This document shows, piece after piece, positions 4,682-35,314 of a DNA stretch of 51,094 bases. Source of the stretch: a virus; the IMG/VR virus record IMGVR_UViG_3300027651_000002, positions 1-51,094 of that record, one strand, 5' to 3'. Each line of letters starts with the position of its first letter. Position 1 is the stretch's first letter. The notes beneath the pieces were generated by a model. It did no database searches, was not told the origin of the DNA, and was given only the letters and a program-made list of their open reading frames with translations. A program made the position numbers and the translations under genes.

Positions 4682-4683
4682 CC

Positions 4684-17906: not shown

Positions 17907-17990
17907 AGGGATTCTCCGCGGCTCGATTCCTGGCCGCCCAGACGCTCGGGGCCGTTGCGTTAGCGGCGCGGGTACGCTACCTGATTACCT

Positions 17991-18380
17991 ATGCGGACAA
18001 TCAGCGTGCTAATCGCAGTGTCGGTGTGGACTGCGGCGCGGCCCTCGAGGGCAGACGCTGGCGAGTGGTTTCAGCCACCGCAGGTGCGCGACGTCATGCT
18101 GCTCGGAGCGGCGGAGGCGCTGATCGCCGTCGACGTCCTGCAGACGCTCGACATGAACCGGCACCCGGAGCGCCACTTCTACGAGACGAATCCGCTGCTC
18201 GGGCTGCACCCGTCAAACACCCGGATCGTCGCGTCTGGAATCGTCGGCGGCTTGGCGGCAGCGACCATCTGGTACGCGCTGCCGTCTCGGGTGCGCTGGG
18301 TGGTCCCGCTCTTCCTCGGTATCGGCGAGAGTGCAGCGATCACCGGGAATGCGCTCGCAGGAATGTCGCTTCGCTTCTGA
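17991..18380 (+). CDS. secreted/membrane protein (129 aa), moron-like
   Basis: Signal-like N-terminus, ETNPLLG motif, C-terminal TM segments, high GC3. It is a lone plus-strand gene between the fibre and lysis genes. Confidence 0.65.
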   Translation: MRTISVLIAVSVWTAARPSRADAGEWFQPPQVRDVMLLGAAEALIAVDVLQTLDMNRHPERHFYETNPLLGLHPSNTRIVASGIVGGLAAATIWYALPSRVRWVVPLFLGIGESAAITGNALAGMSLRF

Positions 18381-19694
18381 TCACCAGAGCCCGTTGGTCG
18401 GGCCGCCCCTGAACCCGAGGTACCGGAAGGACTCGATCTGCGCCGCCTTTGCGCCTGCGGCTGTGCGGCTGCCCATCAAGAAGAACGGCTGCACTGTCGT
18501 TACGTTGCCAAGGGAGAACCCGGACGCGCCGCCGATGAGCTTGCCTGCGCCGGGGATTGCCTTGCCGTTGATCATCCCGGAGACGATCCCGGTCGGCCCG
18601 GTGTTGGGGTTGATCGCCGGGAACAGTCCCAGCCTTTGCGATCCAGCTGCAGCGACGCCTGTGTCCTCGTTCACCCTCGTGGTCACGCCGTTGTCGATGG
18701 ACTTGAGGAACCAGTTACCGTTGACGAGGGTATCGAACACGAAGGCGGCGAGGTTGGCGCCCGTCGGCGAGCCAGTCCAGACGCCGAACATAGCGAATGC
18801 GTTCGTCAGGTTGAGGAGATCGAGGTTGGTCTCGAGGAACCCGAGGAAGCCTCCGCCTCCCACCTGGATGTTGAATTGCGCCGTGGCCGCTTCCCAGTCG
18901 TTGGCGGCAGTCGCGGCTGATGTCAGCACGCCGATTCCGTATCCCGCCGCGACGGCCGGGTTGCCTTGGAAGGTGCCCGCGTTCCCGCTGTTCGTGGCCG
19001 CCCAGAGAGAGGCCGGGATCGTCGCCGGGTAGGCGAAGTCGTCGATGATGTTGACCCTGAGTCCGTGGTCGAGCCAGCGGGACTCGGGGATGATCTGCAC
19101 CTGATCGATCGCAGCGACTTCGCCACCGATCGATGCCGTTCCTCCGCGGACGAAGCGCCAGTCGAAAGTGTGCACGCCTTCGGTCAGCGGGTCGGACATG
19201 AAGCGCCCGGTCACCGTCGCGGTAGTGGCAGTGCAGTTGTATTGCGCGAAGAGGACGCCATCGACGTAGAAGTCGAGGTGATCGGACGCGGCGGTGTTGC
19301 ACTTCACCGTGAAGTAAAAGCCGACGCGCGCAGGCGAGGTCAGCAGCGCGCTCAAACCGAGCGAGCTGTTCGTGTTCGTTCCTTGCGGCGATGGAGCTGC
19401 GGCTTGCGCAGCGCCGAACATCGGCGACGTGGTCGAGCGCACCCACGCCAGGTCAGTGCCGTACCTGGCGGATGGCGTTGTCCATCCCGGCGTCGCGGTC
19501 GGAGGGAAGGCCGCCGCCTCGAACCCTTCGGAGAGTCCGGTCCAAGTGGTGATCGCGGCGAGATAGTCGATGATCTTCTGGGTTCCGACCGTGAACGTCG
19601 CTGCGCTGTCTCCGTCCCCGTCCACGGGCACGTTCATGCTGACCGGAGTCGCCGCGGCAATGTTGCCGGGTATGCCAGAGTACGGAGTGGTCAC
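18381..19694 (-). CDS. tail fibre / receptor-binding protein candidate (437 aa)
   Basis: Distal position in the tail module. Gly/Thr/Ala-rich beta-type composition. Confidence 0.6.
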   Translation of the reverse strand: MTTPYSGIPGNIAAATPVSMNVPVDGDGDSAATFTVGTQKIIDYLAAITTWTGLSEGFEAAAFPPTATPGWTTPSARYGTDLAWVRSTTSPMFGAAQAAAPSPQGTNTNSSLGLSALLTSPARVGFYFTVKCNTAASDHLDFYVDGVLFAQYNCTATTATVTGRFMSDPLTEGVHTFDWRFVRGGTASIGGEVAAIDQVQIIPESRWLDHGLRVNIIDDFAYPATIPASLWAATNSGNAGTFQGNPAVAAGYGIGVLTSAATAANDWEAATAQFNIQVGGGGFLGFLETNLDLLNLTNAFAMFGVWTGSPTGANLAAFVFDTLVNGNWFLKSIDNGVTTRVNEDTGVAAAGSQRLGLFPAINPNTGPTGIVSGMINGKAIPGAGKLIGGASGFSLGNVTTVQPFFLMGSRTAAGAKAAQIESFRYLGFRGGPTNGLW

Positions 19695-19706
19695 TGTGAA
19701 GCCCTC

Positions 19707-21770
19707 TCAGGGTGTCCAGACGACGTTCGATCCGCCGAGCACGCCGTTGCTCGCGCCGAGCGTGCGCGTCGCCGGATAGCCGAGCAGCATTCCTTGCGTC
19801 TGGATCACGATGCGGTTGACCGTCGCGTGCGCTGGCTTCCACGCCTGGATCAGCGCACGGATGAAGTTCGACTCCGCCGAGTTGCTCGCTGGGATCCCTC
19901 CCGCCCAGCCCCAGCTCGGCGGCATGAGCGGGAGCGGGAAGACGACGTCGAACTTCGACCAGAAGGATTGGTTCGGCGGCGAGTAGGCGGAGAGCGGGTC
20001 CGTCTCCCAGATGCCGGAGCCCATCGTCGAGGTGACGAGGTTGCCGGCGCCGAGCGTGGACGGCGCGTTCACGGAGTACGTCTGCACGTACGGCCCAGCC
20101 GGACCTACGCTCTGCTCGATGCTGGCGTATGCGATGTAGAGGCCAGAGTTGACCGTGCCAGCATAGATCTTGGTCCCGTTCGCGCTGGCGAGCTGGATAC
20201 GAACGCGTGGATTTGTGCCGCCAGTTCCAACGCTGCCGGTGAACTCGCAGCGATACCAGCCATTGCCGACCGAGGTGATCTTTCCGGTCGGCGTCACCCC
20301 GCCGCTGCTTGAGATCGTCCCAATCACCCCATTCGTCAGGTCGTAGTAGATGCCCGGGACGCTGGCGGCGTCGCGGAGCACCTCGGAGAGGAAGAGCCAA
20401 GTCCGCTCCGCCGCCTTCGCGTAAACCGCATACGTACCGGAGAGGTTTGCAGCGATCGCGATGGTCTGCTCGAGGTAGTGCTCTTCGTTGACGACATCCG
20501 GCTCAGAGATCTTAGTAGCGGTTGCCGTACCGTCTGGTGCAGCGGCCGCATTCTTCGTGACCGTGAGATTGCCCGGATACCAAATACCAACGAGTGGGAA
20601 ACCATTCGACCAGATCAGGAGGTTCGTCCCGCCATTGTCGAGCGTGAACTGCTTCCCTCCCCGCACCTGTGCCAGGACGACGTTCGTGTACCCGGTCGCG
20701 TAGAAGGTGCGGAGCAGCCCGAATGCCGTCCCTGCCCACGGCCATGCGTTCCACGCATCCTGCAGCCGCGCCGCGTACGCCGTTCCGCTCTCGCTGAACC
20801 CCTGCGGCATCCCCCGCTCGAGGCCGATCTGGGTGAGCGCGTCGGGTGGTGCGTTCTGCGGCAGCCGGGACTTGAGCGAGAGCCGGAGCCGGTCGGCGAA
20901 GACATCCTTCATCGCGCCGAAGGCGGACTCGAACAGCGTCCCGGTCGGATCGGTGAGCGCGGTCGGCGAGAGCACCTGCTGGTAGTTCTGGAAGTCCTGG
21001 TTGCCGGTGATCTGCATCGGCGGCACGGCGAACTGCGGCGACTGCCGGTCGATCAGGCCGCGCCAGAATGAGTCGGAGATCTCCGCATCGGTGCGGGCGA
21101 CCTTGGAGAACCGAGAGTCATCGATCCGGCCGGTGAAATTGTTAAAGCCCATCGATTCCCCGCCGATGGTCCACCACGGCTGGGGGCTTGGCGTCAGCGC
21201 ATAGGTCAGAATCGTGGCGGTCGCGGTCTTGACGCCATCGAGGAAGTAATCGACCGTGGAATGGGTGGCATCCAGAAACGTGGAGCGCACCGCCAGGTGG
21301 TGCCACGCCCCTTTGGTAAGGGTAGACCAGGATCCGGCCGTCTGGAACCCGTGGGATACGTTGTAGACGAAGAAGCCGATGTTATCGAGGCCGAAGATGA
21401 ATGAGGATCCATTGCCGGCATTGGCGAGAGCGCCAAGACCACCGTGGTTATTCCCGGTTCCGCCGCTGTTCCATGTCGCCGGATAGCTGATGCTGGGGTC
21501 GACCCAGAACCAGCTCTCTGCGGTAAAGTTCCCGGACTGGAGAGCTGCGATCGCTGGGTCGTTTGTGGGGACACTGGCGCTCGAGGCGGCTTGACTCGTT
21601 GTGACGGCCCGAGCGTTGCCAATTTTCCCAGCGACCACAGGCGGCGGCCCGCCCAGAGTGACGAGCGGATAGGTGCCGGTCTCATCCTTCAGAGACGCGG
21701 CCCCGCTGGCATCGTCGAGCCGCCAGAGCGCAAGCGTGTTCCCGTCGAGCTTGTGACCGAGCGTCGCCAT
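19707..21770 (-). CDS. baseplate wedge / tail fibre protein with N-terminal LamG-like lectin domain (687 aa)
   Basis: GAWHHLAVRS...YFLDGV is a LamG-type pattern. The central LTQIGLERGMP...RLQDAWNAW.WAGT resembles the P2 gpI / Mu gp48 family. Confidence 0.6.
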   Translation of the reverse strand: MATLGHKLDGNTLALWRLDDASGAASLKDETGTYPLVTLGGPPPVVAGKIGNARAVTTSQAASSASVPTNDPAIAALQSGNFTAESWFWVDPSISYPATWNSGGTGNNHGGLGALANAGNGSSFIFGLDNIGFFVYNVSHGFQTAGSWSTLTKGAWHHLAVRSTFLDATHSTVDYFLDGVKTATATILTYALTPSPQPWWTIGGESMGFNNFTGRIDDSRFSKVARTDAEISDSFWRGLIDRQSPQFAVPPMQITGNQDFQNYQQVLSPTALTDPTGTLFESAFGAMKDVFADRLRLSLKSRLPQNAPPDALTQIGLERGMPQGFSESGTAYAARLQDAWNAWPWAGTAFGLLRTFYATGYTNVVLAQVRGGKQFTLDNGGTNLLIWSNGFPLVGIWYPGNLTVTKNAAAAPDGTATATKISEPDVVNEEHYLEQTIAIAANLSGTYAVYAKAAERTWLFLSEVLRDAASVPGIYYDLTNGVIGTISSSGGVTPTGKITSVGNGWYRCEFTGSVGTGGTNPRVRIQLASANGTKIYAGTVNSGLYIAYASIEQSVGPAGPYVQTYSVNAPSTLGAGNLVTSTMGSGIWETDPLSAYSPPNQSFWSKFDVVFPLPLMPPSWGWAGGIPASNSAESNFIRALIQAWKPAHATVNRIVIQTQGMLLGYPATRTLGASNGVLGGSNVVWTP

Positions 21771-22097
21771 TCAGCGCCTCGCCGCGTCGACCAGGAGCAG
21801 GATCAGCGCCGGTCCCAGCCGCGAGATCAGATTCAGGTTCCGCTCGCGGGCGCTCTCCGACCCGTGCAGCGCGAACTCGTTCAGCAGCGAGTAGCCGACC
21901 CAGCCGATCGCACAGGCCCGCAGCCCGTCGCGGCCGAAGGCGTATCCGCACGCGAGCGGCAACCCGACGCTCCACGCCGCGTGAGCGGAGACGTTCGTCG
22001 CCTCGGCATCTGATCTAAACCCCCCGGAGAGCACGCGCTCCGGCGACCACGCGGCCGGGCTGGACAGCGTGAGAGTCAGAGCGAGAAGCAAGCCCAT
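21771..22097 (-). CDS. small membrane protein inside the baseplate cluster (108 aa)
   Basis: 18/20 sampled third positions are G/C. Tight packing with both neighbours. Hydrophobic N and C termini. Confidence 0.55.
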   Translation of the reverse strand: MGLLLALTLTLSSPAAWSPERVLSGGFRSDAEATNVSAHAAWSVGLPLACGYAFGRDGLRACAIGWVGYSLLNEFALHGSESARERNLNLISRLGPALILLLVDAARR

Positions 22098-22100
22098 CGG

Positions 22101-23606
22101 TCACACCGCCGTAAACGTGAGCGAGTTGGTTAGGGTGGCCACCTGACCCGTGGTGAGGCCGATGTCGGCCGTTGCGGCGTTCACCGTGAAGCTCGCCACG
22201 TTGCGGATCGCCGGGTACGCGCCGACCGCCGTCTCGCTGGCCGCGCCGACCACCGCGAGCAGTTCGGCGTAGAAGACCTTCACGTTCACGCCGCCGGCGT
22301 CGCTGCCGATCCCGAGCGAGAGGAAGAAGTTGATCAGCGCGGTGGAGACTGCGGCCTGCACCGCTGCGAGCGTCGTCTTCGCGGCGAAGTAGTTCACCGT
22401 GCCGGCGAGCGTCAGCACCACGTTCGTCGCCGCTTGAATCAGCGTGGTCGCGGTGAGCGTGACGCGCGCGTTGATGTAGTTCTGCGCATCGGTGACCGCA
22501 GGGCCGCCGACCGCTCCGGAAGCGCCCGCGAGGTAGATGTCGACCTGCCCGGCTGTCGTCGGGTCCACGATGACCAGCGTCTTCGTGATGGTGGCCGAGT
22601 GCGATGCAGCCACCTCCGCCGACTTCGCCCACAGGTCATACGTGGACGCCGTCGCCGATGTCCCGAGAGCCGGCCAGCGCTGCTGGCAGCGGAGCATCAG
22701 CGCGGCGCCCGTCTCCGCGTCCGCGCCCTGCGAGGTGATCCACGTTCCCGATCCCGGATCCGGGTTATTCACCGTCACGCCCGGGAGCGTCCCGCCGGCG
22801 ATCGTGGTGATGGTGCCGTTGCCGACGTTGTAGGCCGCGCCAGGGGTCAGCGCCTGGACTTGGAGGTTGAGCGTGCCGCCCTTCGTGAGCGTTCCGCCGC
22901 TCGTGTTCGTGTAGAGCAGGCCGCCCGTGGAGGCGAAGGTCATCTGCCCGGCGGTGATGGTGAACGGCCCGGCGCTCTGCGCGTCGGTGATGGTGACCTG
23001 ACCAGCCGTCGCTGCGGCCGGAAACGGATCTAGGCCATAGAACTGCTTCGCGAGCAGAACGGCCCACGAGCCGGTCGCGCTCGTAGTCAGGCCCGCAGCC
23101 GCGAGCGCCGCCTGCTGTGGGGAGAGCGACGCGAGCGACTGCGCCTCGATCTCGACCAGCTGCCGGAGCGCCCCGGAGGCGGTCCAGACCGTGACCTGCA
23201 GCGAGGGCGCGGCGAGCGCGAAGCTGAACGTGTCGCCGACCGTGAACGAGGTCCCGGTTCCGACCGGACCAGAGGCAAAGGTGACGGTGACGCCGGTCGC
23301 ACCGAGCGCGTACGTGCCGGGCGCGGAGGGGATGGTGACGGTCGAGCTGTAGGTCACTCCCCCGTCGAGGCTGTACTGAAAGGCGCCTGTCCCGAGCTCG
23401 CCTGCGGTGACGATCTTGATGATGGACTTCGGGTATGCAGCGCCCGGCGTCCCGGAGAGCGTGATCGATCCGGTCCCGCTGATGACGTTGCCCGCTGCGG
23501 TGCCGCCGGCGACGACCGGGCTCAGCCCCTGGAGCGCGCCGAGCAGCAGCGTCCGCCACTGATCGACCGTGGGGGCGGCCAGCAGCTGCGTCAGCGTGAG
23601 CGCCAT
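22101..23606 (-). CDS. baseplate J-like protein (Mu gp47 / P2 gpJ family) with an inserted beta domain
   Basis: Size, position, and the C-terminal ...YDLWAKSA...VDIYLAG... pattern. Confidence 0.7.
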   Translation of the reverse strand: MALTLTQLLAAPTVDQWRTLLLGALQGLSPVVAGGTAAGNVISGTGSITLSGTPGAAYPKSIIKIVTAGELGTGAFQYSLDGGVTYSSTVTIPSAPGTYALGATGVTVTFASGPVGTGTSFTVGDTFSFALAAPSLQVTVWTASGALRQLVEIEAQSLASLSPQQAALAAAGLTTSATGSWAVLLAKQFYGLDPFPAAATAGQVTITDAQSAGPFTITAGQMTFASTGGLLYTNTSGGTLTKGGTLNLQVQALTPGAAYNVGNGTITTIAGGTLPGVTVNNPDPGSGTWITSQGADAETGAALMLRCQQRWPALGTSATASTYDLWAKSAEVAASHSATITKTLVIVDPTTAGQVDIYLAGASGAVGGPAVTDAQNYINARVTLTATTLIQAATNVVLTLAGTVNYFAAKTTLAAVQAAVSTALINFFLSLGIGSDAGGVNVKVFYAELLAVVGAASETAVGAYPAIRNVASFTVNAATADIGLTTGQVATLTNSLTFTAV

Positions 23607-24029
23607 CTAGCCCGCCTTCAGGATCGCCAGCGTCACCGACGTGACGGACATCACGAACTGGAACGGTCCCGCTTTGCTCGTGCCGGTGAGGTGGATGGTC
23701 AGCGTCATCGCCTGCGCGTTGAAGGCCACGTCCGCGGATGCCGTCGCGACCGCCTCCTCGCGTAGCGCCTCCCGCTCGATCGCCGCCTTGATCTGCGCCT
23801 GCGCGTCCGGGCCCACGCCTTCGTTCAGGTAGCCGCGCACGTCGGTGCACTCGTTCGGGGCCCAGAACCATGCGCCTCGAGGAGTGGTCAGGCGGCGCGC
23901 GATCCGCTGCGCGAGCGCGACGATGCCTGAGACCAGAGCGCCAGTCGGCGAAAGGCCGGGATAGCAATCCAGATCCACGCCGAGCGGGTCGGTGAGGTTC
24001 ACCGAAGCGCTCTCAAAGGGATAGGCCAT
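23607..24029 (-). CDS. baseplate wedge protein (gpW / gp25-like)
   Basis: 140 aa, immediately upstream of the J-like gene. Confidence 0.55.
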   Translation of the reverse strand: MAYPFESASVNLTDPLGVDLDCYPGLSPTGALVSGIVALAQRIARRLTTPRGAWFWAPNECTDVRGYLNEGVGPDAQAQIKAAIEREALREEAVATASADVAFNAQAMTLTIHLTGTSKAGPFQFVMSVTSVTLAILKAG

Positions 24030-24032
24030 CGG

Positions 24033-24644
24033 TCAGGAGATCCGCTTGATCGCGATGTAGTTATTAGCGCCGAAGCCGACCAGAGCCTTCCCCGCTCCAG
24101 AGTTCTGGTAGGCGCGCACGTCGATAGCGTCGCCGGCGGCTAGATTCAGAATGGCGGTGACGACCAAGACCTGATTCGCTCCAGGAGTCACGAACCACAT
24201 CTCTTTTTGCTGTACGCCGCCCTTGAATATTGAGCACCCGGCGGACCCAGCGATGGCGAGGGCATAAGCGATCCCGCCGACGATCAGGTAATGGCCACCT
24301 TTGCCGGTCGGGACCGTGAAGACGCCAGTCCCCGAGTTGTAAGCCGAGTCCGTGTCCAGTTCGACGGTGCCAAACACGACGGCAGTGTAAGACGCGTTCC
24401 CGATCGTCTGCCCAGCTGCGGTATTAGCGCCGAGCATTGGGTTGGTCCCGAGCTGCGTGACGGGGTCAACCTTGTCGTTGTTCAGCGCGTCGACGATGCC
24501 CTGGACGAACGCGTTGATGCCCTTCTGGTGATTCGTCCCGGATCCGTACGTGACGCCCGCGAAGGCAGCGACGATATCGTTCGCGATCCGGCCAGCGAGC
24601 CCGGTGCGCACGCCATCGGTCGAGTCGCCTACGATGATCGACAT
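24033..24644 (-). CDS. C1q/TNF-like jelly-roll domain protein (203 aa)
   Basis: The C-terminal GVFTVPTGKGGHYLI ... LNLAAGDAIDVRAY ... NYIAIKRIS follows the C1q globular-domain pattern. Confidence 0.5.
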   Translation of the reverse strand: MSIIVGDSTDGVRTGLAGRIANDIVAAFAGVTYGSGTNHQKGINAFVQGIVDALNNDKVDPVTQLGTNPMLGANTAAGQTIGNASYTAVVFGTVELDTDSAYNSGTGVFTVPTGKGGHYLIVGGIAYALAIAGSAGCSIFKGGVQQKEMWFVTPGANQVLVVTAILNLAAGDAIDVRAYQNSGAGKALVGFGANNYIAIKRIS

Positions 24645-24648
24645 GAGG

Positions 24649-25128
24649 TCACTTCACGTGGATGACGGAGCTGCCGACGTTGGGGGTCACCGGAACGATC
24701 GGCGCGCCGGTCGGATAGCCGAGGTTGCCGATGTGCGTCTGGGCGTCGAGGAGCGTCTTCAGATCCGAGTAGCGGACGAGCACGGTGTCGGCGGGCCCGA
24801 CGTTGAGCGAGACCAAGACGCCGCCAGAGCCTTCCCAGCCGACCACGATCGGCTTCTGCGGGTCGGCACCGGCAAATGCGAGCAGGCAACGCGCACCACC
24901 GGAGACCGTCGCGGTGATGCCCGGGACGCCGTAGCGGATCGGGACCTTCGAGTAGGGCGGCAGCCGCACGTCGTCAGGCTGCAGCTCGAGCGACCCGTCG
25001 CCGTTCTGCGAGACGACCTTCGCTGGGTACGCGCCCAGGTAATCCATCCGCGGGCCGAGGATGTCGAGGCCGACCACGCGCCGGATGAAGGCCGTGAGCC
25101 CAGCCTTCGCGCGGTCGGAGAGCGGCAT
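24649..25128 (-). CDS. baseplate spike protein (gpV / Mu gp45-like)
   Basis: Size, position, and the motif PIRYGVPGITATVSGGARCLLAF. Confidence 0.6.
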   Translation of the reverse strand: MPLSDRAKAGLTAFIRRVVGLDILGPRMDYLGAYPAKVVSQNGDGSLELQPDDVRLPPYSKVPIRYGVPGITATVSGGARCLLAFAGADPQKPIVVGWEGSGGVLVSLNVGPADTVLVRYSDLKTLLDAQTHIGNLGYPTGAPIVPVTPNVGSSVIHVK

Positions 25129-25131
25129 GGC

Positions 25132-25815: not shown

Positions 25816-25829
25816 GGTATCTCGCGGGA

Positions 25830-26135
25830 ATGGCCGACCTGAGCGCCGAGGAGATCGCCGAACTGCGCAGGTTGCTCCCGCCGATCGCTCGCGGCGACTC
25901 CGTAACGATGGCGCGGCCAGCCTATGAGGAAATCCGCAACGCGCTCCCGCGCTTGCTCGATGAGGTGGACCGAGCGCGCGAGATGCGCCGCATCATTCGC
26001 GGATGTCCGCCAGAGCACGGCACGGAGCACGCACCCTACTGTGCCGACTGCTGCGCCCAGTTCGATCCAGGCCGCATGGTGTTACGCCACGAAGCGAGAT
26101 GCGGATTCCTCGGGCACGAGCGTGCTACGGATTGA
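25830..26135 (+). CDS. Cys/His-rich small protein (101 aa), antisense to the tail operon
   Basis: High GC3 in the plus frame. No minus-strand gene covers the interval. Confidence 0.6.
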   Translation: MADLSAEEIAELRRLLPPIARGDSVTMARPAYEEIRNALPRLLDEVDRAREMRRIIRGCPPEHGTEHAPYCADCCAQFDPGRMVLRHEARCGFLGHERATD

Positions 26136-26805: not shown

Positions 26806-26806
26806 T

Positions 26807-28324
26807 CTATTGCCCGCTCTCGGTCGCCAGCTGCTCGAGCCCGTCGTTGAACTGCGTCGGGCCCGCGTCCTGCTGCTGCCGCGCGATCTCGTGCTGGATC
26901 GCTAGACGGATTCCGTCGGGATCGAGGCGCTGCCCGCCGCGCGCGTCCACGTTCACGTTGATCGCCGGCTGGCTGAATTGCTGGTACGGAGACGAAAGCC
27001 GCGTCGGTCCCAACGGCGTGCGGTCTCGGTTGAAGAGGAAGTTCGTCATCCGATTATTGCGGAAGCTGAAGTAGTCGCGGAGTTGGCTCACTTCCTGGCC
27101 AACGGAGGTCGGAGCATTCTGAGCGCGACCGCCGGCTGCGTATCCGATCAGGATGCTCGTGAACTTCGCGGCCAGCTCGAGTAGCGGGAGCACGCTCTTC
27201 ACGGCCTTGGTCAGATCCGCGAAGAACTGGCTCATCGCCTGACGGCCTTCAGCGCCGGTCAGCGGCTTGAGCGCCGCGCCCATGGTATCGATCAGGTCCC
27301 GGAGCGCGCTGCGCATGTTCTCGCCGCCGAGAGTGCGGGCGAGATTCCGGAGCACGTCCTGCAGCGTCTTCAGGCCGCGCGAGTTGTCGACGCTGGCCAT
27401 GAACTGCTCCCAGGCCGACTTGAACTGCCCGATCGCGCCCGGGAGCGTGCTGCCAGCGAACCCGCGCGCCATGTTGCCGACGCCGCCGCGACCACCGGGC
27501 ATTCCGGAGAGCACGTCGAACACGGCCTGCATCATCGGGCTGGACTCACCACCGCGGACGAACTGGCCTTGAATGCGTCCAGCGAGCACCTGCTCCGCAT
27601 CGCCGGGACGCATGTTCATCCGGGCACCGAACGCCGCCCAGAGCTTCTTCAGATCGAGAGCACCGCCGAAGCCGGTCAGATTGCCAACGTTCAGCACGGG
27701 CGAGGTGAGAATGGACTGCAACTGCTGCGTGATGTCGGCCCTGCCGCCGGTCGCCGCACGCACGTCGTAGACGGCGCCGACCAGCTTGCGCGCGAAGTCC
27801 GGAGACGCGCCTGCTGTGTTGAACGCAGCGCCGGTCGAGACCACCTCACCCGGCGGCCGTCCGTACGCCAGCGCCTGACGCTCCAGCGCAGTGAAGAACT
27901 TGCCGCCGGCGCTGCCGCCCATAGTGGCGCTGAGGCCGAAGAGTCCGCGCTGCCGGACGGTGACCGCATCGCGGACCTGGTCGCCCATGTCGAGCGCAGC
28001 CCGGCCCACCGCGCGGAACGCCCGCGCCGCAGTATCGAGGATGTACAGGGAGGACGCCCATTTGAGCAGCGAGTCTCTCCAGCTAACGGAGGACCGCGTG
28101 TGGTCGTCGATGGCACGCTTGCTGAGCAGCAGCTGATCGCGGTGGATCTGCAGCTCGAGGCGCGTCTTCTTCAGCGGGTCAGCGATGCTATCGAGCCGGG
28201 CCTGCTTGGCCGCGAGGTCCAGCGTCTTGAGCGCGGTGACGACGCGCTTCAACTGCGATTCGATGTTGCCGGCGGGCTGGGTGACCTGGTCGCGTAGCGT
28301 GAAGGCCCACTCTAGACCGGCCAT
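26807..28324 (-). CDS. tail tape measure protein (505 aa)
   Basis: Helical, Gly/Ala-rich. Lies after the chaperone pair. Confidence 0.8.
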   Translation of the reverse strand: MAGLEWAFTLRDQVTQPAGNIESQLKRVVTALKTLDLAAKQARLDSIADPLKKTRLELQIHRDQLLLSKRAIDDHTRSSVSWRDSLLKWASSLYILDTAARAFRAVGRAALDMGDQVRDAVTVRQRGLFGLSATMGGSAGGKFFTALERQALAYGRPPGEVVSTGAAFNTAGASPDFARKLVGAVYDVRAATGGRADITQQLQSILTSPVLNVGNLTGFGGALDLKKLWAAFGARMNMRPGDAEQVLAGRIQGQFVRGGESSPMMQAVFDVLSGMPGGRGGVGNMARGFAGSTLPGAIGQFKSAWEQFMASVDNSRGLKTLQDVLRNLARTLGGENMRSALRDLIDTMGAALKPLTGAEGRQAMSQFFADLTKAVKSVLPLLELAAKFTSILIGYAAGGRAQNAPTSVGQEVSQLRDYFSFRNNRMTNFLFNRDRTPLGPTRLSSPYQQFSQPAINVNVDARGGQRLDPDGIRLAIQHEIARQQQDAGPTQFNDGLEQLATESGQ

Positions 28325-28331
28325 AGGCGCC

Positions 28332-28503
28332 TCACATCAGCGACGGCATCATGCTCCGCTCGCGCAGCAGGGCGATCAACTCCGCGATCAGCATCGCCCC
28401 GAGCTCCGCCTGCTCGTCTGGTTCGCCGCGCCTGAACGCGAGCAGTGCACGGGCAGCGACGCGAGGGTCCGCGTGCGCCCTGGTCAGGCGGCTTCGAAAA
28501 GCT
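28332..28503 (-). CDS. -1 frame extension of the tail assembly chaperone (gpGT-like)
   Basis: The -1 frame stays open from within the chaperone gene to 28332, which is 8 nt before the tape measure start. Confidence 0.4.
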
Positions 28504-28801
28504 CGATCTCCGCCTCGTCGTCGATGCCGGCTAGCTTCCCGATCGCCTCGGACAGCTTGACGGCGAGCCCGGGCTTCGTTTCGAACAGTGCCGCGACCTG
28601 CTCCGGCGACGGATCGACCACGCACTTCGTGGCGAGGTTCTCCATCGAGACGCGCGATCGCCGCGGATCGCCGAGAGCCTCGAGGAACGCGTGCCAGTCG
28701 GCGCGCGCTGGCGCTGCGACGTAGTACTCCTTGCCCTGCGTCTTGACCCGCGCCAGGGCCTTGCCGGGATGAGCCTTTCGCAGTTCGTCGATCTTGGACA
28801 T
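28484..28801 (-). CDS. tail assembly chaperone (gpG-like)
   Basis: 105 aa, acidic C-terminus, between the tube and tape measure genes. Confidence 0.65.
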   Translation of the reverse strand: MSKIDELRKAHPGKALARVKTQGKEYYVAAPARADWHAFLEALGDPRRSRVSMENLATKCVVDPSPEQVAALFETKPGLAVKLSEAIGKLAGIDDEAEIELFEAA

Positions 28802-28810
28802 GCGAGTCCT

Positions 28811-29323
28811 TTACGGTGCGGTCGCTGCGGCGACGCCCTTGAGCAGCTGGTTCAGCGGCAGAACGCCGTTCACGAGGATGTACCGAGCGATGAACGGCAT
28901 CTCGACGGAGAGTCCGTCCGAGCTGCCGCCGGTGATCGAGTGTCGGCTGCGGGTGAAGCGCATGCCGATGATGGTGTCGGTGGTCGTTCCTGAGACGGCG
29001 CCAGTGGGGATCGCGGCCGGCGGCAGCTCCGAGTACGTCACGGAGCAGATGATGTTCGCCTCGAAGAGTCCCTGCGCGACCGTGAGCAGGTTCGTGGTCA
29101 GATCGTTGAACTCTTCGCGCAAAAGCGACAGCGTCCCGGACGCGTCGTAGATGCCGCGCGTGAAGCCGAGCGCCTGCGGGTTCAGTCCGCGGATGATCCC
29201 CGGGTTCAGCCCGTGCTCGTACTGGATCGAGGTGACCCCGATGTAGCGCTGCAGGTTCACCTTCAACTCGACCGAGGACGAGTCGAAGCGAACCCCGTTG
29301 ATCAGGGGATACCCAAGCGGCAT
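28811..29323 (-). CDS. tail tube protein
   Basis: 170 aa, directly after the sheath gene. Confidence 0.7.
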   Translation of the reverse strand: MPLGYPLINGVRFDSSSVELKVNLQRYIGVTSIQYEHGLNPGIIRGLNPQALGFTRGIYDASGTLSLLREEFNDLTTNLLTVAQGLFEANIICSVTYSELPPAAIPTGAVSGTTTDTIIGMRFTRSRHSITGGSSDGLSVEMPFIARYILVNGVLPLNQLLKGVAAATAP

Positions 29324-29341
29324 GGCTGTCTCCGGGAGCGG

Positions 29342-31063
29342 CTAGGCCGCCTTGACGACGAGGCCCTGGTTCGTGAAGCCCAGATCGAGCGAGATCTGCT
29401 TCGCGTACCCGAGCGGGATTACGCGCGCGGTGGGCAGGATGGTCTGCGAGCTGAGCACGTTGTTCGTGCGCGAGATCTGGATGATGTAGTCGGAGAACGA
29501 CCCGGGCGGCATCGCGTTGCGGACGAACCCGTCGGTGTAGTTCTCGATATTGCGAGCGTCCTTCTCCGAGATCGTTCCGTCGCCGTTGACGCGCACCGAG
29601 TCGTTCAGGAAGTTCAGCAGAGCGAGGCGCGTGTAGTAGGACGCCAGGTCCATCACCCGGCCGTACTGCCAGTAGGTGAAGTCGGATCCGGCCTGCGCGA
29701 ACAGGCGGCCGTTCGTCACCCAGAAGCCGTTGCGGCCCGGGATGCTGGTCAGGGTGGAGAAGCGGCCGGCGTCAAGGCCGGGCGTCTGGAACTCGTCGCG
29801 AGCGAGCTTGGAGACGCCGGGCAACGAGCCGTCGAGGACGCGGCCGAGGTCGTTCTGGGCCGGGACGCCACCCGCGCGCGCCATGATGCTGTACGCAGCC
29901 GGTCGGCTCTGGATGCGGCCGTTCACGGGCGAGGTGACGTTATGGAAGCCCGCCGCGGCGCCGACTCGAGTCGAGGAGGAGGCGTTGAAAGCGGCGAGGG
30001 TGTTCGCGTCCGTGTCCGAGGGCACTTCGATCATCGCCCGATCGAACTTGAACGAGCCGGCTGCGGTGCCCATCAGCGTGTCGAGTGAGGCGAGCAGCGT
30101 CGCGGCGTTGCCGACGGTGGATGCGGGCCCGACGACGTGCAAGCCGATGCCGGAGCTGAAGCGCGTGTCGATGTAGAGCTGGTTGAACGCGTTCGTCAGG
30201 TCGGTGGTCGTGTAGCTCGCGGTCGTGGTCGTGAACGTGTACGTGGTCCCGACGACGTAGGTGCCGGCCGCGAAGGTGAGCACGATCCCGGTCGAGCACT
30301 GGCCAGCCTTGAAGGGGTCGTTGCCGTCCGCGATGATAGCGCTGCCCGATGCCGGGATCAGGAACGGCTGGCTGACCGTGTTTCCGCCGTCGAGCGAGTA
30401 GGTGAAGAAGCCGGCGCCGAGTGCGCCGCCGCCCGTCACCGTGACCGTGACCGTGTACGCGTCGACCGGGCAGGCCGAGCTCAGAGTGATCGCGAGGGTG
30501 CCGGAGCCGCTCGTCTGCGTGACCGTGCCGGTCGTGGCGACGGTGAAGATGTCGCCCGCGACCGCCGATCCCGCGCCGTACGCCAGCGTGGTGAAGGACG
30601 CGCCGGGAGTGATCAGCGTCGCGGCCGAAGTGAAGGTCGCGCCGTAGGTCGCGCCGCCGTCGAGCGACATCTGGAAGGTGGCCACGCTAGCAGCACCGCC
30701 CAGGATGCACTTCAACTGGAAGGCGACCGCGGGCTTGATCGCGACCGTGACTGCCGGGCCGGTGCCGCTCTGGACGACGGCGGTGGCGGTGCCGTAGGTG
30801 GACGGGTTCACCGGAACGAGCAGAAGCCCGCCAGGGCGAGGCGAGCCTTGCCCGCCTACTGCCAGCGCCAGCGCAGCCGCCTCGACCATCAGGCCGCCGT
30901 TGCCGCACGCCTTCTGCAGCGACGTGTTGTCGGACACGGACGACACGCTGTTCACCACGCCGAGCGGGGAGGGGCCGATCTTGGCAAACAGGTTGCCGGC
31001 CCCCGGCGGAACGATTCCGAGCCCACCGTCCCTGACGGTGACCGATACACCTGGAAGCGCCAT
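29342..31063 (-). CDS. contractile tail sheath protein with two inserted beta domains
   Basis: 573 aa. The C-terminal half (...RVGAAAGFHNVTSP..GRNGFWVTNGRLFA...) is sheath-like. Confidence 0.75.
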   Translation of the reverse strand: MALPGVSVTVRDGGLGIVPPGAGNLFAKIGPSPLGVVNSVSSVSDNTSLQKACGNGGLMVEAAALALAVGGQGSPRPGGLLLVPVNPSTYGTATAVVQSGTGPAVTVAIKPAVAFQLKCILGGAASVATFQMSLDGGATYGATFTSAATLITPGASFTTLAYGAGSAVAGDIFTVATTGTVTQTSGSGTLAITLSSACPVDAYTVTVTVTGGGALGAGFFTYSLDGGNTVSQPFLIPASGSAIIADGNDPFKAGQCSTGIVLTFAAGTYVVGTTYTFTTTTASYTTTDLTNAFNQLYIDTRFSSGIGLHVVGPASTVGNAATLLASLDTLMGTAAGSFKFDRAMIEVPSDTDANTLAAFNASSSTRVGAAAGFHNVTSPVNGRIQSRPAAYSIMARAGGVPAQNDLGRVLDGSLPGVSKLARDEFQTPGLDAGRFSTLTSIPGRNGFWVTNGRLFAQAGSDFTYWQYGRVMDLASYYTRLALLNFLNDSVRVNGDGTISEKDARNIENYTDGFVRNAMPPGSFSDYIIQISRTNNVLSSQTILPTARVIPLGYAKQISLDLGFTNQGLVVKAA

Positions 31064-31069
31064 GTCGGG

Positions 31070-31327
31070 TTACCTTCCGCCGAGCGTGATGGAGGCGACG
31101 GCCGCGAGCGCAGCGTCGAAGTCGTCTTCGGAGATCGTGGTGAAGTCGTCCCAGCGCTTCGAGGCAGCGGCGCCGGCGTAGAGCACGTCGAACATGACCC
31201 GCGCCTTGCGGTCGGCGTCGTGCTGCGGCTCCGGCGGGCGCTTGCGGCCGAGCCAGAACGAGACCGGCATCTTCGCCGGCGGCGCAGACGTATCCAGCGG
31301 CGCGGGCGCGCGGTCCTGGTCGGACAT
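31070..31327 (-). CDS. hypothetical protein (85 aa)
   Basis: ORF track. Confidence 0.5.
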   Translation of the reverse strand: MSDQDRAPAPLDTSAPPAKMPVSFWLGRKRPPEPQHDADRKARVMFDVLYAGAAASKRWDDFTTISEDDFDAALAAVASITLGGR

Positions 31328-31356
31328 GGGTGGGCTCCCTGCTATGCTGAGAGGCG

Positions 31357-31626
31357 ATGCTTCACTTGCCGCTCGAGTACAGTGACTTGGTTGCCGAGAA
31401 AGAACGGCTATCCACGAAGCTGGCCGCGATCAGCGCCAAGCTCCGCGAGTTGAGAAAGGCCACGATGGAGTCCGCGGGCTGGAAGCGGTGCTGCCGCTGC
31501 TTCCCATCCTGCGTCCACGACGACGGGTTCTGCGGCTGCTGCTTGTACAACCACGTCACCGGAAAGCAGATCGAGCACCCGAAGTCCTTTTTCGAGGCCA
31601 GCGAGGACGAGCCTAGGGATTCGTGA
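31357..31626 (+). CDS. coiled-coil plus Cys-cluster small protein (89 aa), antisense to the virion operon
   Basis: High GC3. Contains CCRCFPSCVHDDGFCGCC. Confidence 0.6.
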   Translation: MLHLPLEYSDLVAEKERLSTKLAAISAKLRELRKATMESAGWKRCCRCFPSCVHDDGFCGCCLYNHVTGKQIEHPKSFFEASEDEPRDS

Positions 31627-32206
31627 CGGTGGATCCACCCGGCGGGATCGGCCCCATCTGGTTCGTCTGCGGCGTGAAGGTGGTCAGCGTCGTCTGCTCG
31701 GAGACGCCCGGCGCGTTGTCCTGCACCTCGAGCACCGGTATCGCGATGGTGAGGTTCAGCACGTAGCGGTGGCCGAGCAGGTTCCCTTCCGAGCTGCGCG
31801 GATTCACCCAGGCGCTGCCGTTCAGGTCGATGGCCCCGTACGCTTGATGACGCAAGGCCGAGATCACCGAGCCGAGCAGCGCTTCGCTCGCGCTGTAGTC
31901 GTCGGCACTGCCCAGGATGCCGGCCCAGATATGGCATTCGAGTCCGGCCAGCCGCGTGTAGAGCATGCGCGGGATCTGCTTGCCGGGGTTGGCAGCGATG
32001 AAGGCCGCCTGCACCGCCTTGGTCATGGCCGGCGGGCGCATGACGAAGGTGTCCTGCGCCGGCACCCAGGTCACGCGCGGCGTCGCAGTGCGATCGCGCT
32101 TCGGGGTCGACCCGAGCTCGAGCGCTGGAGTGCCCGGCGTCAGGGAGAGCGCGCCGTTGGTGGTCAGGATGGTATTGACCGGGGCGAGCACGTCCTTGAG
32201 CGCCAT
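31613..32206 (-). CDS. tail completion / neck protein candidate (197 aa)
   Basis: ORF track and position. Confidence 0.5.
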   Translation of the reverse strand: MALKDVLAPVNTILTTNGALSLTPGTPALELGSTPKRDRTATPRVTWVPAQDTFVMRPPAMTKAVQAAFIAANPGKQIPRMLYTRLAGLECHIWAGILGSADDYSASEALLGSVISALRHQAYGAIDLNGSAWVNPRSSEGNLLGHRYVLNLTIAIPVLEVQDNAPGVSEQTTLTTFTPQTNQMGPIPPGGSTVTNP

Positions 32207-32647
32207 CTACAGACTCGCCAGCAGCGCCTTGGTGACCGCTTCCTCGGCGATCCGCTCGAAGATGCGCGTCCACTCCGGCGGGATCAGATCAGCGTCAGGG
32301 AAGATGCGGCGCTGTACCATTCGCTGCGTGCCGCTCTGGTGGAATCCCGAGTAGGGCACAGGCGAGACCAGCGTAAAGCCGATGGACGAAGTGCGGCGGC
32401 GGATGCGGCCCTGCATGCGGCCGCTCTTGACCAGCACCGGCCCGCCAGCGCGTCGCTTCTTCAAGGGCGCCCAGGGATTGCCGTACGGGTCCCGGCTCAT
32501 GGCGAACTCCTGCCGCACCAGATCGAGTGCCGCGTCGGCGAGGCTGGCGAGCAGGTCGCGCTTCCACTCTGCCCTGCCCATGCGAGCGACCGCGCGGGAG
32601 AGCGTGTCGATCTCCTGCGTGCCGCCGATGAGCTCGAAGTCGCTCAC
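32207..32647 (-). CDS. virion morphogenesis protein (Phage_tail_S / HK97 gp10-like)
   Basis: GTG at 32647 (GTGA overlap). Contains DPYGNPWAPLKK...VLVKSGRM...PYSGFHQSGT. Confidence 0.65.
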   Translation of the reverse strand: MSDFELIGGTQEIDTLSRAVARMGRAEWKRDLLASLADAALDLVRQEFAMSRDPYGNPWAPLKKRRAGGPVLVKSGRMQGRIRRRTSSIGFTLVSPVPYSGFHQSGTQRMVQRRIFPDADLIPPEWTRIFERIAEEAVTKALLASL

Positions 32648-33120
32648 GGGCTGGAGTCGAAGGCGAAGCTGAGCGCCGCGCCTGCGGTCGTGCCCGCCCC
32701 GGGCAGGACGAGGAGCCGTAGCGTATCTCCAAGCTGCTGCGGGATGATGGTGTTGACGGCGATCGTCGGCGTGTACCCACCGAGCGGACCGTCGATGGTG
32801 TTCGTCGCGGAGGGCGCGTTCAGCGTGCCGCCGATGCCGCGGGTGAGCACGATGTTCCACGAGATCGCCGCCGCACTGGCGGCGAGCTGGTTGAAGCGGG
32901 CGAGGTCTTTCCAGAAACCGGCTCCGGACTGGCCCAGGCCGCGCCCGTAGTTCGTCTGGATGACGATGTCGAGCGTCCCGCCGACCGCGCCGATCAGGTT
33001 CGCCGTCCCGATGGCCTTGTTGTATTCGAGCAGGCCCTCGGTCCGCGCGACTTCCGCCCACGCATTGGCGGTTGGCGTGGTGACCGCCCACGTGAAACTT
33101 AGGCCGTAGACGGAAGCCAT
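32644..33120 (-). CDS. head-tail joining protein candidate (158 aa)
   Basis: ORF track and position. Confidence 0.45.
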   Translation of the reverse strand: MASVYGLSFTWAVTTPTANAWAEVARTEGLLEYNKAIGTANLIGAVGGTLDIVIQTNYGRGLGQSGAGFWKDLARFNQLAASAAAISWNIVLTRGIGGTLNAPSATNTIDGPLGGYTPTIAVNTIIPQQLGDTLRLLVLPGAGTTAGAALSFAFDSSP

Positions 33121-33136
33121 CGCGCGCCCCTTTCAG

Positions 33137-33649
33137 CTACCAGCCGCGGAGCGCCGGGCGACCGATGATCACCTGTCCGGCCTGCGGGTCTGAATTGATG
33201 GTGACCTGGCCGTCGAGCACGGCCTGCGTCGTGCTGTAGGTCGTGCGCGCCTGCGAGGTGAACGGATTTCCGCCAGCGCCGCCCTTGCCGCCCGCAGCCG
33301 AGTCGGCCACCAGCGGCGTCACCTCGCCCTTGGAGATGAGCTTGAGCCAGGCCAGCGCTTCGTCTTTTCGGTTCTGGAAGACGACGTCGCCCGGATCTTC
33401 GGGGTCGAATCCACGGAAGGCGATCAGGCTGAAGGCCGCGATCGCGACCGAGGCGTCTCGCAGATCCGCGCCCCAGGAGGTGAGCGGGAGCGTGAACTTC
33501 GCGCCGATGTAGCTGTCGATCTTGGCGTTCGCCGCATCGATGAAGGCCTGCTGCTGCGCGGTCGTCACCGTGCCCAGCGCCGACGCGGATAGCCCGGAGG
33601 TCGTCAGGTCGGCGAGGCTCGCGTACGGCGTCGGAGTGAGCAGCGCCAC
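33137..33649 (-). CDS. Mu gp36-like head-tail adaptor (DUF1320-like)
   Basis: YASLADL...FIDAANAKIDSYIGAKFTLPL pattern. Confidence 0.6.
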   Translation of the reverse strand: MALLTPTPYASLADLTTSGLSASALGTVTTAQQQAFIDAANAKIDSYIGAKFTLPLTSWGADLRDASVAIAAFSLIAFRGFDPEDPGDVVFQNRKDEALAWLKLISKGEVTPLVADSAAGGKGGAGGNPFTSQARTTYSTTQAVLDGQVTINSDPQAGQVIIGRPALRGW

Positions 33650-33652
33650 GGG

Positions 33653-34033
33653 CTACCTCGCCTGCGCCTGCTGCTTCTCCGGCTTCACCTCGCCGAGCAC
33701 CTTGTAGGTGAGCAGCATCGGCGTCTTGATCGTCCGGGTCTTGTACCCGTCCGGCAGGACGATGATCTGCCCGCCCTTGGCGTGCTCGAGATGGCGCAGC
33801 TTCGCGGCCACCGTCAGGCCGGGCTGGCGCGCCTCGACCGCCTCGCGCTTGTCGAAGTCGTAGAACTGGAAGGGCGGCCCAGGCGGGTCGTCTTCCAGGA
33901 CTGCCTCGGTCTCGCCGTTGGGCCAGAACCGGCCGCCGGCCCAGAACCCGGGCTCGACTCCGTCGCTCCCGTCGTCGCGGGTGAAACGGCGCTCGGGGAC
34001 AATGACCAGCACACGAACAGGGGTAGAGGGCAT
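33653..34033 (-). CDS. hypothetical virion-module protein (126 aa), paralog of 40382-40780
   Basis: ATG at 34033 with CAGGAG upstream. Shared motifs are listed in the findings. Confidence 0.6.
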   Translation of the reverse strand: MPSTPVRVLVIVPERRFTRDDGSDGVEPGFWAGGRFWPNGETEAVLEDDPPGPPFQFYDFDKREAVEARQPGLTVAAKLRHLEHAKGGQIIVLPDGYKTRTIKTPMLLTYKVLGEVKPEKQQAQAR

Positions 34034-34048
34034 GCGATACTCCTGGAA

Positions 34049-34273
34049 ATGGACACCGTCGAATTTCACGAGGCAGGCCGGCAGGTGATGAACCGGATCA
34101 TCGAGGCGCTGAACAAGCTGGAGGGAACGACCGTGCCGGCCGAGGCGGTCGTGTTCACCCTGCTCGCGGCCGCAGCGATGCAATGCGACAGGTCACTGCA
34201 CATCACCGACCGCGCGGCGTTTCTACGCTTGGCCGGCGAGACCTGGGACAGCCACCGGAAGGCGAACGGCTAG
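34049..34273 (+). CDS. small protein (74 aa), antisense between the capsid and adaptor genes
   Basis: Plus-frame GC3 is 14/17 versus 14/22 for the minus-frame extension. Confidence 0.55.
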   Translation: MDTVEFHEAGRQVMNRIIEALNKLEGTTVPAEAVVFTLLAAAAMQCDRSLHITDRAAFLRLAGETWDSHRKANG

Positions 34274-35232: not shown

Positions 35233-35314
35233 GGGGGCACGTCCTTGTGCGCCTCACCCGTCGAGGGCGGCGCTGCGAGGTATTGCGATTGCGGGTGAGG
35301 GGAAGGGTTCGGAG

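Follow-up and report, generated by a model that had tools for sequence, protein, structure and literature searches.

Four small antisense genes in the late block of a soil metagenome phage: probable accessory cassettes at late-gene boundaries

What are short genes doing on the opposite strand of an otherwise unidirectional phage late block? The question is raised by IMG/VR virus record IMGVR_UViG_3300027651_000002, the whole 51,094 nucleotides (nt) of which form the window analysed here, a contig of ~51 kb with a guanine-plus-cytosine (GC) content of 67%. A preliminary description, made from the letters of this DNA, pointed to four short plus-strand open reading frames (ORFs), here called orfA to orfD, within its minus-strand late block, and suggested that they might be lysogen-expressed morons, cis-antisense brakes on late gene expression, or both. 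We find that the four ORFs are genuine protein-coding genes and that they are probably horizontally exchanged accessory genes, minimal morons in the broad sense, in the form of ORF-sized antisense cassettes, each of which exactly fills the junction from a late gene's stop to the start of its neighbour.

Layout and coding status of the four ORFs

The ORFs and the late genes on either side of them are as follows.

17358-17906, minus strand: endolysin gene (GH19), divergent from orfA
17991-18380, plus strand: orfA, 129 amino acids (aa), with a signal-peptide-like N-terminus and three predicted transmembrane (TM) helices
18381-19694, minus strand: tail-fibre-like late gene, the stop of which abuts the orfA stop
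25132-25815, minus strand: baseplate-region late gene, divergent from orfB
25830-26135, plus strand: orfB, 101 aa, with the N-terminal helical module LxxEEIAELRRL...RLLDEVxR
26125-26805, minus strand: late gene, the final 11 nt of which overlap the orfB 3′ end
31070-31327, minus strand: small late gene upstream of the sheath gene, divergent from orfC
31357-31626, plus strand: orfC, 89 aa, with an N-terminal helix and an invariant CCRCFP...V.DDGFCGCC cluster
31613-32206, minus strand: late gene, the final 14 nt of which overlap the orfC 3′ end
33653-34033, minus strand: late gene that diverges from orfD and truly begins at the ATG of 34033, which has an AGGAG ribosome-binding site (RBS), not at the TTG of a longer ORF
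34049-34273, plus strand: orfD, 74 aa, which reads as helical from its sequence
34270-35232, minus strand: Mu gpT-like major capsid gene, the stop of which overlaps the orfD stop by 4 nt

On recheck, the layout matched the preliminary description exactly. All four ORFs are open from ATG to stop on the plus strand, their 3′ ends overlap the stop of the upstream late gene by 0, 11, 14 and 4 nt (orfA to orfD), and the divergent start-to-start gaps are 84, 14, 29 and 15 nt; the translated peptides include ETNPLLG, CPPEHGTEHAPYCADCC and CCRCFPSCVHDDGFCGCC. That the late block is minus-strand save for these four agrees with the gene calls of the ENA and JGI pipelines for the same contig, which place exactly these genes, with the same coordinates, on the opposite strand from the lysis genes through the DnaB region. 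The identical geometry of the four had been presented as special. The shared layout is real, yet it is a topological consequence of having an antisense gene between two abutting co-directional genes, and the tightness alone is informative.

A coding signature in the plus frames had also been noted, and we could confirm it: GC content by codon position follows GC1>GC2<<GC3 (for example 0.64/0.44/0.88 in orfD), while the matching antisense frames, those that share GC3, have the swapped pattern and contain stops. The weakest case of the four is orfB, which has a codon-usage signal near zero (log-likelihood ratio 0.6, crude model) and the coding status of which rests on homologues and substitution rates rather than on codon usage. 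The ratio of nonsynonymous to synonymous substitution rates (dN/dS) in the plus frame was 0.22 for orfA and 0.35 for orfB, each against the related contig L020, and 0.30 for orfD against L001, similar to the flanking late genes (0.14-0.49). All four ORFs have protein homologues on other contigs, with E values of 1e-15 to 1e-65. On the strength of the plus-frame GC pattern, the dN/dS values of 0.22-0.35 and the homologues elsewhere with conserved motifs, we conclude that the four are genuine protein-coding genes and that shadow ORFs are excluded. None has a paralogue within the window, and relatedness between orfB and orfC was undetectable (hhalign probability 1.7%).

Junctions and protein families in other genomes

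The preliminary description had proposed alignment with related phages as the way to see whether each ORF is a precise indel at a gene boundary, and three contigs bear this out. In L004 (capsid 77% identical) the genes flanking the orfB, orfC and orfD sites are 2, 13 and 78-96 nt apart with no insert, and in L112 (sheath 70%) the gaps at the orfC and orfD junctions are 9 and 41 nt, again with no insert. The third, L114, is a close relative (sheath 91% identical) that matches the window at the nucleotide level up to 31328, one base beyond the start codon of the late gene 31070-31327, and again from 31625, with the breaks at the start and stop codons of the flanking genes; between the equivalents of these two positions orfC is replaced by a different antisense gene of 96 aa that carries an orfB-like N-terminal module. 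The orfC cassette thus delimited is 296 nt for a 270-nt ORF, and inserts overall are ~296-310 nt for ORFs of 270-306 nt, so that they are essentially bare ORFs. Two further contigs, L009 and L021, have no orfB at its junction, and L021 has no orfA at the fibre/lysis junction. The four genes are absent from all relatives below ~80% identity (L003/L004, L112, L009, L019 and L021). Among close relatives, L020 keeps orfA (81%) and orfB (48%) in the same geometry, with overlaps of 0 and 11 nt, and L001 and L002 keep orfD (62%), also in the same geometry. We conclude from these alignments that the four ORFs read as precise gene-boundary indels and that their behaviour is accessory and cassette-like.

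Antisense genes are found at two further sites in L114, beyond the orfC junction. A 78-aa antisense gene lies at a junction that is uninterrupted in the window, and the capsid junction holds a two-gene antisense unit consisting of an orfD homologue and a 74-aa Cys/His protein. The four antisense genes between sheath and capsid in L114 are at these positions.

L114 3040-3330, 3920-4156, 6001-6240 and 6240-6464, all plus strand: antisense genes

One of them has its start within a CATG that shares bases with the start codon of its divergent late neighbour; the two-gene unit is joined through a TAATG overlap, and its 74-aa product has a CPEHADEHE motif that resembles CPPEHGTEH of orfB. With a rough gene finder, the late blocks of L004, L007, L009 and L021 yielded no antisense genes, and that of L019 yielded a few, one of them a lipoprotein gene. 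Comparison of L114, L020 and L001 with the relatives that lack such genes indicates that the trait is clade-specific and that its content varies among close relatives. The multiplicity of antisense genes in one operon is, judging by L114, a trait of the clade. The junction downstream of the capsid gene reads as an insertion hot spot in these comparisons.

Several other features of the junctions were seen along the way. The antisense lipoprotein gene of L019 (5329-5907, minus strand, lipobox LIGC) directly follows the homologue of the late gene 25132-25815 and has TATGAT 5 nt ahead of its ATG; here a neighbouring junction holds a cassette of another kind. In L001 a 205-aa HNH-endonuclease-like ORF (2502-3119, plus strand) lies co-directionally between the capsid gene and the orfD homologue, the 3′ end of which it overlaps by 4 nt, and L002 likewise has this ORF. 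In L004 a hairpin followed by TTTAT (7345-7375) stands directly after the capsid gene, where the window has orfD and no such hairpin.

The same protein families turned up in other genome contexts. Homologues of orfA are P0011 (81%), P0012, P0013 and P0014, those of orfB are P0015-P0018 together with the 96-aa ORF of L114, and those of orfC are P0019-P0021; orfD is clade-restricted, with homologues in L001/L002 (62%) and L114 (P0023, 41-47%). The orfB homologue P0015 (L025) is co-directional with its neighbours, downstream of DnaB and within a run of small genes ahead of the terminase gene, and orfC homologues likewise lie in co-directional small-gene strings (L026, an early string, and L108/109), as do orfA homologues in L111. 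In L021 the integrase gene shares its last 8 nt with an orfA homologue, which is followed by an 84-aa ORF with the orfB N-terminal module. At this prophage end (L021 7011-8656, all three genes on the same strand), relatives of two cassettes that are scattered in the window are neighbours. A protein of a Myxococcales metagenome-assembled genome has an orfA-like C-terminal domain and is encoded near a resolvase. The orfB homologue P0017 (L110) is antisense again, its neighbours being two unrelated genes of the minus strand at distances of 15 and 1 nt. Because the ORFs are under protein-level purifying selection and have homologues in co-directional contexts, the conserved units are the proteins and not the RNAs, and it is the proteins that move from one genome context to another.

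The orfA protein has invariant polar residues in and between its helices (E42, D48, Q51, T52, H58, E65-x-N67-P68, H73-P74, E113 and N120). Its gene adjoins lysis and fibre genes ~1.9 kb from a putative attP; surroundings of lysis genes, attP and integrase are the usual neighbourhood of conversion or exclusion genes. A conserved Cys/His cluster of the form C-x2-H-x2-EH-x3-C-x2-CC ... H-x3-C-x3-H characterises orfB, and the Cys/His patterns of the orfB and orfC products suggest that both may bind zinc. Structure prediction, which the preliminary description had recommended, was of partial help. AlphaFold2 (AF2) gave a four-helix model of orfA with a mean predicted local distance difference test (pLDDT) score of 73, for which Foldseek against PDB found nothing better than E 2.6, and a poor model of orfB (pLDDT 63, <50 at residues 63-73) that was too weak for a fold search. 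Scans of the four proteins and their homologues against Pfam, PHROGs, NCBIfam and PADLOC gave nothing significant; none of the four matched the PADLOC 2.0 defence models, PDB profile searches with the four returned nothing below E 0.4, and none of them had a tblastn match among 50,697 isolate phage records.

Three family assignments were tried and rejected. The D..QT...E.NP motif of orfA resembles that of DUF5658-like small membrane proteins, which was not borne out by Pfam, with no match of any kind at E<=10 for orfA and its four homologues. The N-terminal module of orfB, which resembles Ead/Ea22-like proteins, fared the same way (no such Pfam match at E<=10 for orfB and its homologues). The orfB string HAPYCADC fits a ZAS-type H-x3-C-x2-C; a ZAS anti-sigma domain (zf-HC2) gave no Pfam match, and the AF2 model has low confidence in the region of the motif.

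Expression signals and competing explanations

To see how such cassettes might be expressed, their boundaries were scanned for signals. No terminator-like site was found by scan after any of the four ORFs, and a 106-nt stretch around and downstream of each stop folds no more stably than shuffled sequence (z -0.03 to +1.6). Most late genes have a Shine-Dalgarno sequence at 4-7 nt; orfA, orfB and orfD have none at a workable spacing, and the GAGAGG of orfC is just 2 nt from the ATG. The sequences in the divergent gaps are the following.

17907-17990: orfA divergent gap of 84 nt, from the endolysin start to orfA, poorly conserved in L020
25815-25823, plus strand: extended -10-like element of orfB, TGGTATCTC, 6 nt before the ATG; the T of the element also ends the CAT start of 25132-25815
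31340-31348, plus strand: extended -10-like element of orfC, TGCTATGCT, with a canonical TANNNT hexamer, 8 nt before the ATG
34033-34041, plus strand: extended -10-like element of orfD, TGCGATACT, 7 nt before the ATG, overlapping the CAT start and RBS spacer of 33653-34033

It can be seen that these elements abut or overlap the divergent late start codons, in keeping with the earlier suggestion that the ORFs have their own promoters, here putative, overlapping late sequence. The TG of the orfB and orfD elements is supplied by the CATG of the divergent late start codon. The TGGTATCTC element is conserved at 13/14 nt in L020, and TGCGATACT is conserved in L001, although partly confounded by a late-gene leader pattern; the orfB and orfD junctions as a whole are almost invariant in L020 and L001. 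The pattern TGN[TG]ATNN[TC] at 6-8 nt before an ATG occurs, across the whole window and both strands, only at orfB, orfC and orfD. A strict TANNNT at 5-8 nt upstream, defined a priori and counted across this phage group, precedes 0.5% of all ATGs, 0/30 late genes and 5/13 antisense junction genes (orfC of the window, one in L110, two in L114 and one in L019), an enrichment in which orthologous junctions are not independent observations. A longer upstream motif common to all four was sought, and only GC-rich, low-information k-mers were found. We infer that the -10-like elements of orfB, orfC and orfD suggest leaderless or near-leaderless mRNAs.

The phage that carries the cassettes is known solely from soil metagenome contigs. 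Its other main features are these.

2574-16029, plus strand: operon with a helix-turn-helix (HTH) gene (2574), an RNase_T-family exonuclease, a YqaJ recombinase and a tyrosine integrase (14845-16029)
Minus-strand block, beginning: DnaB helicase, methylase and Sigma70_r4 protein
Minus-strand block, continued to its end at 16455: terminase, Mu-like portal, protease, gpT capsid, tail, sheath, Baseplate_J, fibre and GH19 endolysin
16077-16126, minus strand: putative attP core, tRNA 3′-half-like (T-arm GGTGG-TTCGAGT-CCACC, acceptor strand CGCCGCC-A)
16333-16368, minus strand: terminator of the late operon as a whole, a strong GC-rich hairpin of 16 bp whose T-run is confined to the minus strand and which offers none to plus-strand transcripts of the integrase operon
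16455-16922, minus strand: last late gene, its product bearing a lipobox (LLLAAC) at the N-terminus and a TM helix at the C-terminus
44028-44453, minus strand: 141-aa protein with a weak Sigma70_r4 match, upstream of the terminase region

The integrase operon and the gene content from DnaB to endolysin make this a temperate, myovirus-like phage with Mu-like head genes. The same contig was found in several soil metagenome assemblies (JGI, ENA, Logan), with a length of 51,136 or 50,995 bp and differing start points, which is consistent with a complete phage genome that is circularly permuted or circular. The tRNA-half-like sequence, which is flanked by the integrase stop (16029) and by the end of the late block, is probably the attP core and would serve integration into a tRNA gene; a complete tRNA was not found there by ARAGORN, and the identity of the anticodon is uncertain. 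The product of 16455-16922 looks like a unimolecular spanin, and such a lipoprotein-plus-TM product points to a Gram-negative host. That of 44028-44453 is a candidate phage-encoded late-gene activator or sigma-like factor. The phage had no close relatives among 185,579 reference genomes or 50,697 phage records, and a megablast of 23.6 kb of the late block against the phage records gave no match. Genome-collection scans found just distant capsid relatives at <=40% identity, and for this reason no host can be named; in the metagenome scan the sheath protein alone found nothing, and with alignment one locus. Elsewhere in the related contigs, L004 has two tandem paralogues (8347-8826 and 8842-9309) of the late gene 32644-33120, and in L112 the gene upstream of the capsid gene, a homologue of 35315-36169, is a 505-aa Gly/Ala/Thr-rich expansion (2991-4508).

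If the four ORFs are exchanged accessory cassettes, each would be transcribed separately by the host RNA polymerase from a TGn-extended -10-type promoter. This putative promoter would lie within the 14-29 nt gap and overlap the divergent late gene at its start codon or RBS, and the resulting mRNAs would be leaderless or near-leaderless, with no need of a Shine-Dalgarno sequence. The cassettes would be on at times of late-operon silence, either in the prophage or at an early stage of infection, and, as they lack terminators of their own, head-on late transcription would shut them down. Likely roles would be host- or competitor-directed: orfA may act in the envelope as a membrane protein for exclusion or lysogenic conversion, orfB and orfC may be small zinc-binding-like modulators, and orfD a small, helical-reading protein restricted to the clade. 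The preliminary description had late transcription reading through the antisense strand of all four ORFs. For at least orfB and orfC it must do so, because the flanking late genes are 2-13 nt apart in insert-free relatives. Head-on transcription without terminators predicts mutual interference, in which silencing of the cassettes by strong late transcription is more likely than braking of the late operon by the cassettes; convergent-promoter work is the basis for expecting late transcription to win. Expression early in infection would be as possible as expression in the lysogen, since orfB and orfC homologues are found in early lytic operons of other phages.

A number of observations weigh against this account. 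The classic moron hallmarks fail, in that there are no terminators and GC content is deviant for orfC only. Timing is ambiguous: orfB and orfC have homologues in lytic early operons, and the orfA homologue of L021 looks co-transcribed with the integrase gene. A scan of 16000-35500 for consensus sigma-70 promoters found none, and the 84-nt gap of orfA has no Shine-Dalgarno sequence, no consensus promoter and no -10-like element. The TGN[TG]ATNN[TC] pattern was defined post hoc, after the sequences had been seen, similar opposite-strand patterns occur at 3/26 control late-gene leaders with no antisense gene, and the pattern at orfB and orfD overlaps the RBS spacer of the late gene. Leaders of the "CATGCGA" and "GAGATACC" types mimic a -10 element on the opposite strand, and the initially very small P-values for the motif are tempered accordingly. 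Lastly, no function can be assigned to the four proteins from family, fold, defence, structure or isolate-phage libraries. A separate observation on the leaders is that the type GGAGATACC(N)ATG is reused (36170-36200, the leader of 35315-36169, and 25816-25829) and reads on the opposite strand as GGTATCTCC, which mimics a -10.

A stronger version of the accessory-cassette reading would be that the window, L020, L001/2 and L114 form a clade with a dedicated architecture, in which ultra-compact, terminator-less antisense cassettes between late-gene stops and starts, with a -10 fused to the divergent late start and leaderless mRNAs, are exchanged as units among relatives and draw on shared modules, with an automatic late shut-off that acts as a toggle between lysogeny or early infection and the late phase, and with products that are new families of prophage defence or counter-defence. 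The shared modules would be an LxxEIAELR...LLDEVER helix, Cys/His clusters of the CPxEHxxEH type and an E-x-N-P protein with three TM helices; as a whole this version is doubtful, and we put it forward tentatively.

Two quite different explanations are both unlikely. According to the first, the elements are foremost cis-antisense regulators and the ORFs are secondary: terminator-less transcripts would run into the fibre, baseplate, tail and capsid genes and silence leaky or incoming late mRNAs, serving as a brake or as a means of exclusion. Such transcripts would be fully complementary to late mRNA, with no terminator or hairpin following them, and there is a precedent in STnc6030, an antisense RNA of prophage BTP1 that is antisense to structural genes and mediates exclusion (PMC7067206). 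However, the ORFs are under protein-level purifying selection, their homologues keep the protein sequence in co-directional positions with no antisense pairing to late genes, and the presence of a different gene at the orfC junction of L114 implies that the conserved unit is not a target-specific RNA. Added antisense or transcriptional-interference effects may nevertheless be a side effect of the cassettes.

According to the second, the ORFs have no promoters of their own, and a long plus-strand transcript from the HTH-to-integrase operon (2574-16029) reads through int and attP into the late antisense strand, for which read-through from lambda PL is a model. All four ORFs have the same orientation as the integrase operon, the T-run of the hairpin at 16333-16368 is limited to the minus strand, the orfA homologue of L021 overlaps the int stop and looks co-transcribed, and gaps of 14-29 nt leave scant room for a promoter. 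Yet orfB, orfC and orfD are 10-18 kb past int, across untranslated antisense sequence where Rho-dependent termination is expected, the ORFs do not have the usable Shine-Dalgarno sites that internal ORFs would need, and the -10-like elements are at leaderless spacing.

It is more improbable still that the four are ancestral core genes of the lineage, for example assembly or regulatory factors, which were lost in distant relatives rather than acquired. The identical, tightly integrated geometry in L020, L001 and L114 and the GC content that orfA, orfB and orfD share with their surroundings would fit such an origin, but the genes are absent below ~80% identity, where just 2-13 nt separate the late genes, in L114 the place of orfC is taken by a non-homologous gene, and the same families occupy early or integrase-adjacent positions in unrelated contexts. 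That the ORFs are chance or shadow ORFs of a 67% GC genome has next to no chance of being right, and is already refuted by the comparative data: high-GC DNA does yield many long spurious ORFs (194 of >=60 aa in the region) and the codon-usage score of orfB is near zero, but GC1>GC2 fits the plus frame while the antisense frames contain stops, dN/dS is 0.35 or below, and there are homologues in other contexts with conserved Cys/His or polar motifs.

Significance and comparison with known systems

New functions in anti-phage defence, counter-defence and lysogenic conversion come to a large extent from the accessory genes of prophages. The window adds four orphan protein families, two of them Cys/His-rich and one a membrane protein with conserved intramembrane polar residues, and their cassette behaviour makes them candidates for functions of this kind. 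Accessory cassettes can, it seems, shrink to a bare ORF with a promoter, here putative, fused to the start codon and with no terminator, and heuristics for finding morons that need a promoter, a terminator and deviant GC would overlook them. If the leaderless, head-on arrangement is true, it would couple accessory-gene expression inversely to late transcription in a simple way. One known model for the start of such a gene is the lambda cI mRNA from PRM, a lysogeny-expressed transcript which is leaderless, the promoter directly abutting the AUG, divergent from the lytic genes and with no Shine-Dalgarno sequence. A promoter abutting the ATG opposite lytic genes is likewise what we infer in the window; cI, however, is an immunity repressor in a regulatory region, whereas the genes described here are inside the late operon.

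Morons are defined as added DNA with deviant GC content and with a promoter and terminator of their own (Juhala/Hendrix; Cumby et al. 2012, PMC3594210). The classic lambdoid examples, such as HK97 gene 15 and lambda bor/lom (PMC3594210), resemble the four cassettes in being extra DNA between genes that are adjacent in relatives, in lying in tail and lysis regions and in being exchanged horizontally; they differ in having their own promoter and terminator and deviant GC, whereas the inserts of the window are bare ORFs with a putative promoter fused to the start codon. Measured against the definition, the extra DNA between genes adjacent in relatives is there. Base composition is not deviant as a rule, with GC z scores against late-block windows of the same size of -0.24 for orfA, -0.24 for orfB and -0.57 for orfD, and only orfC, which has the lowest GC content of the four (0.607), stands out at -2.37. 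All four lack a terminator of their own. As to a promoter, there is no sigma-70 consensus, orfB, orfC and orfD have -10-like elements that are confounded by late-gene leaders, and orfA has nothing. The moron idea of the preliminary description therefore holds for the accessory cassette behaviour and the added DNA and fails on the terminator and, for three of the four, on GC content; the four ORFs are therefore a compact variant of the moron kind and not textbook members.

The antisense placement itself is also familiar, as placement antisense to lytic genes is a characteristic of moron loci (Owen et al., PMC7067206). STnc6030 of the Salmonella prophage BTP1 (PMC7067206) is, like the predicted transcripts of the window, antisense to prophage structural genes, and it is a precedent for an antisense brake or exclusion; it is non-coding, whereas the elements of the window encode conserved proteins. 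A non-coding cis-antisense RNA would have no conserved ORF, and here the ORFs show dN/dS of 0.22-0.35 and have homologues in non-antisense contexts. Small morons antisense to a late operon have been described already (Tab of JBD26, PMC10884400; PMC7067206). The preliminary interpretation is broadly right in kind with its novelty overstated; the general phenomenon is known and the advance is incremental, and what is new here is the evidence for cassette swapping, the distribution of the families over several contexts, and the model of leaderless promoters without terminators.

The nearest known counterpart is Tab, the tail assembly blocker of the Pseudomonas aeruginosa Mu-like phage JBD26, a prophage-encoded defence protein of 83 aa that is encoded on the opposite strand in the late operon, with a promoter of its own that reportedly serves expression from the prophage (PMC10884400). 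Compared by its published description, Tab is like the products of the window in being a small opposite-strand protein encoded between two late genes, with no known domain, in a phage with Mu-like head genes. It differs in being a single gene between terminase genes, with an anti-Tab partner and a defence function that has been shown experimentally, whereas the window carries four genes.

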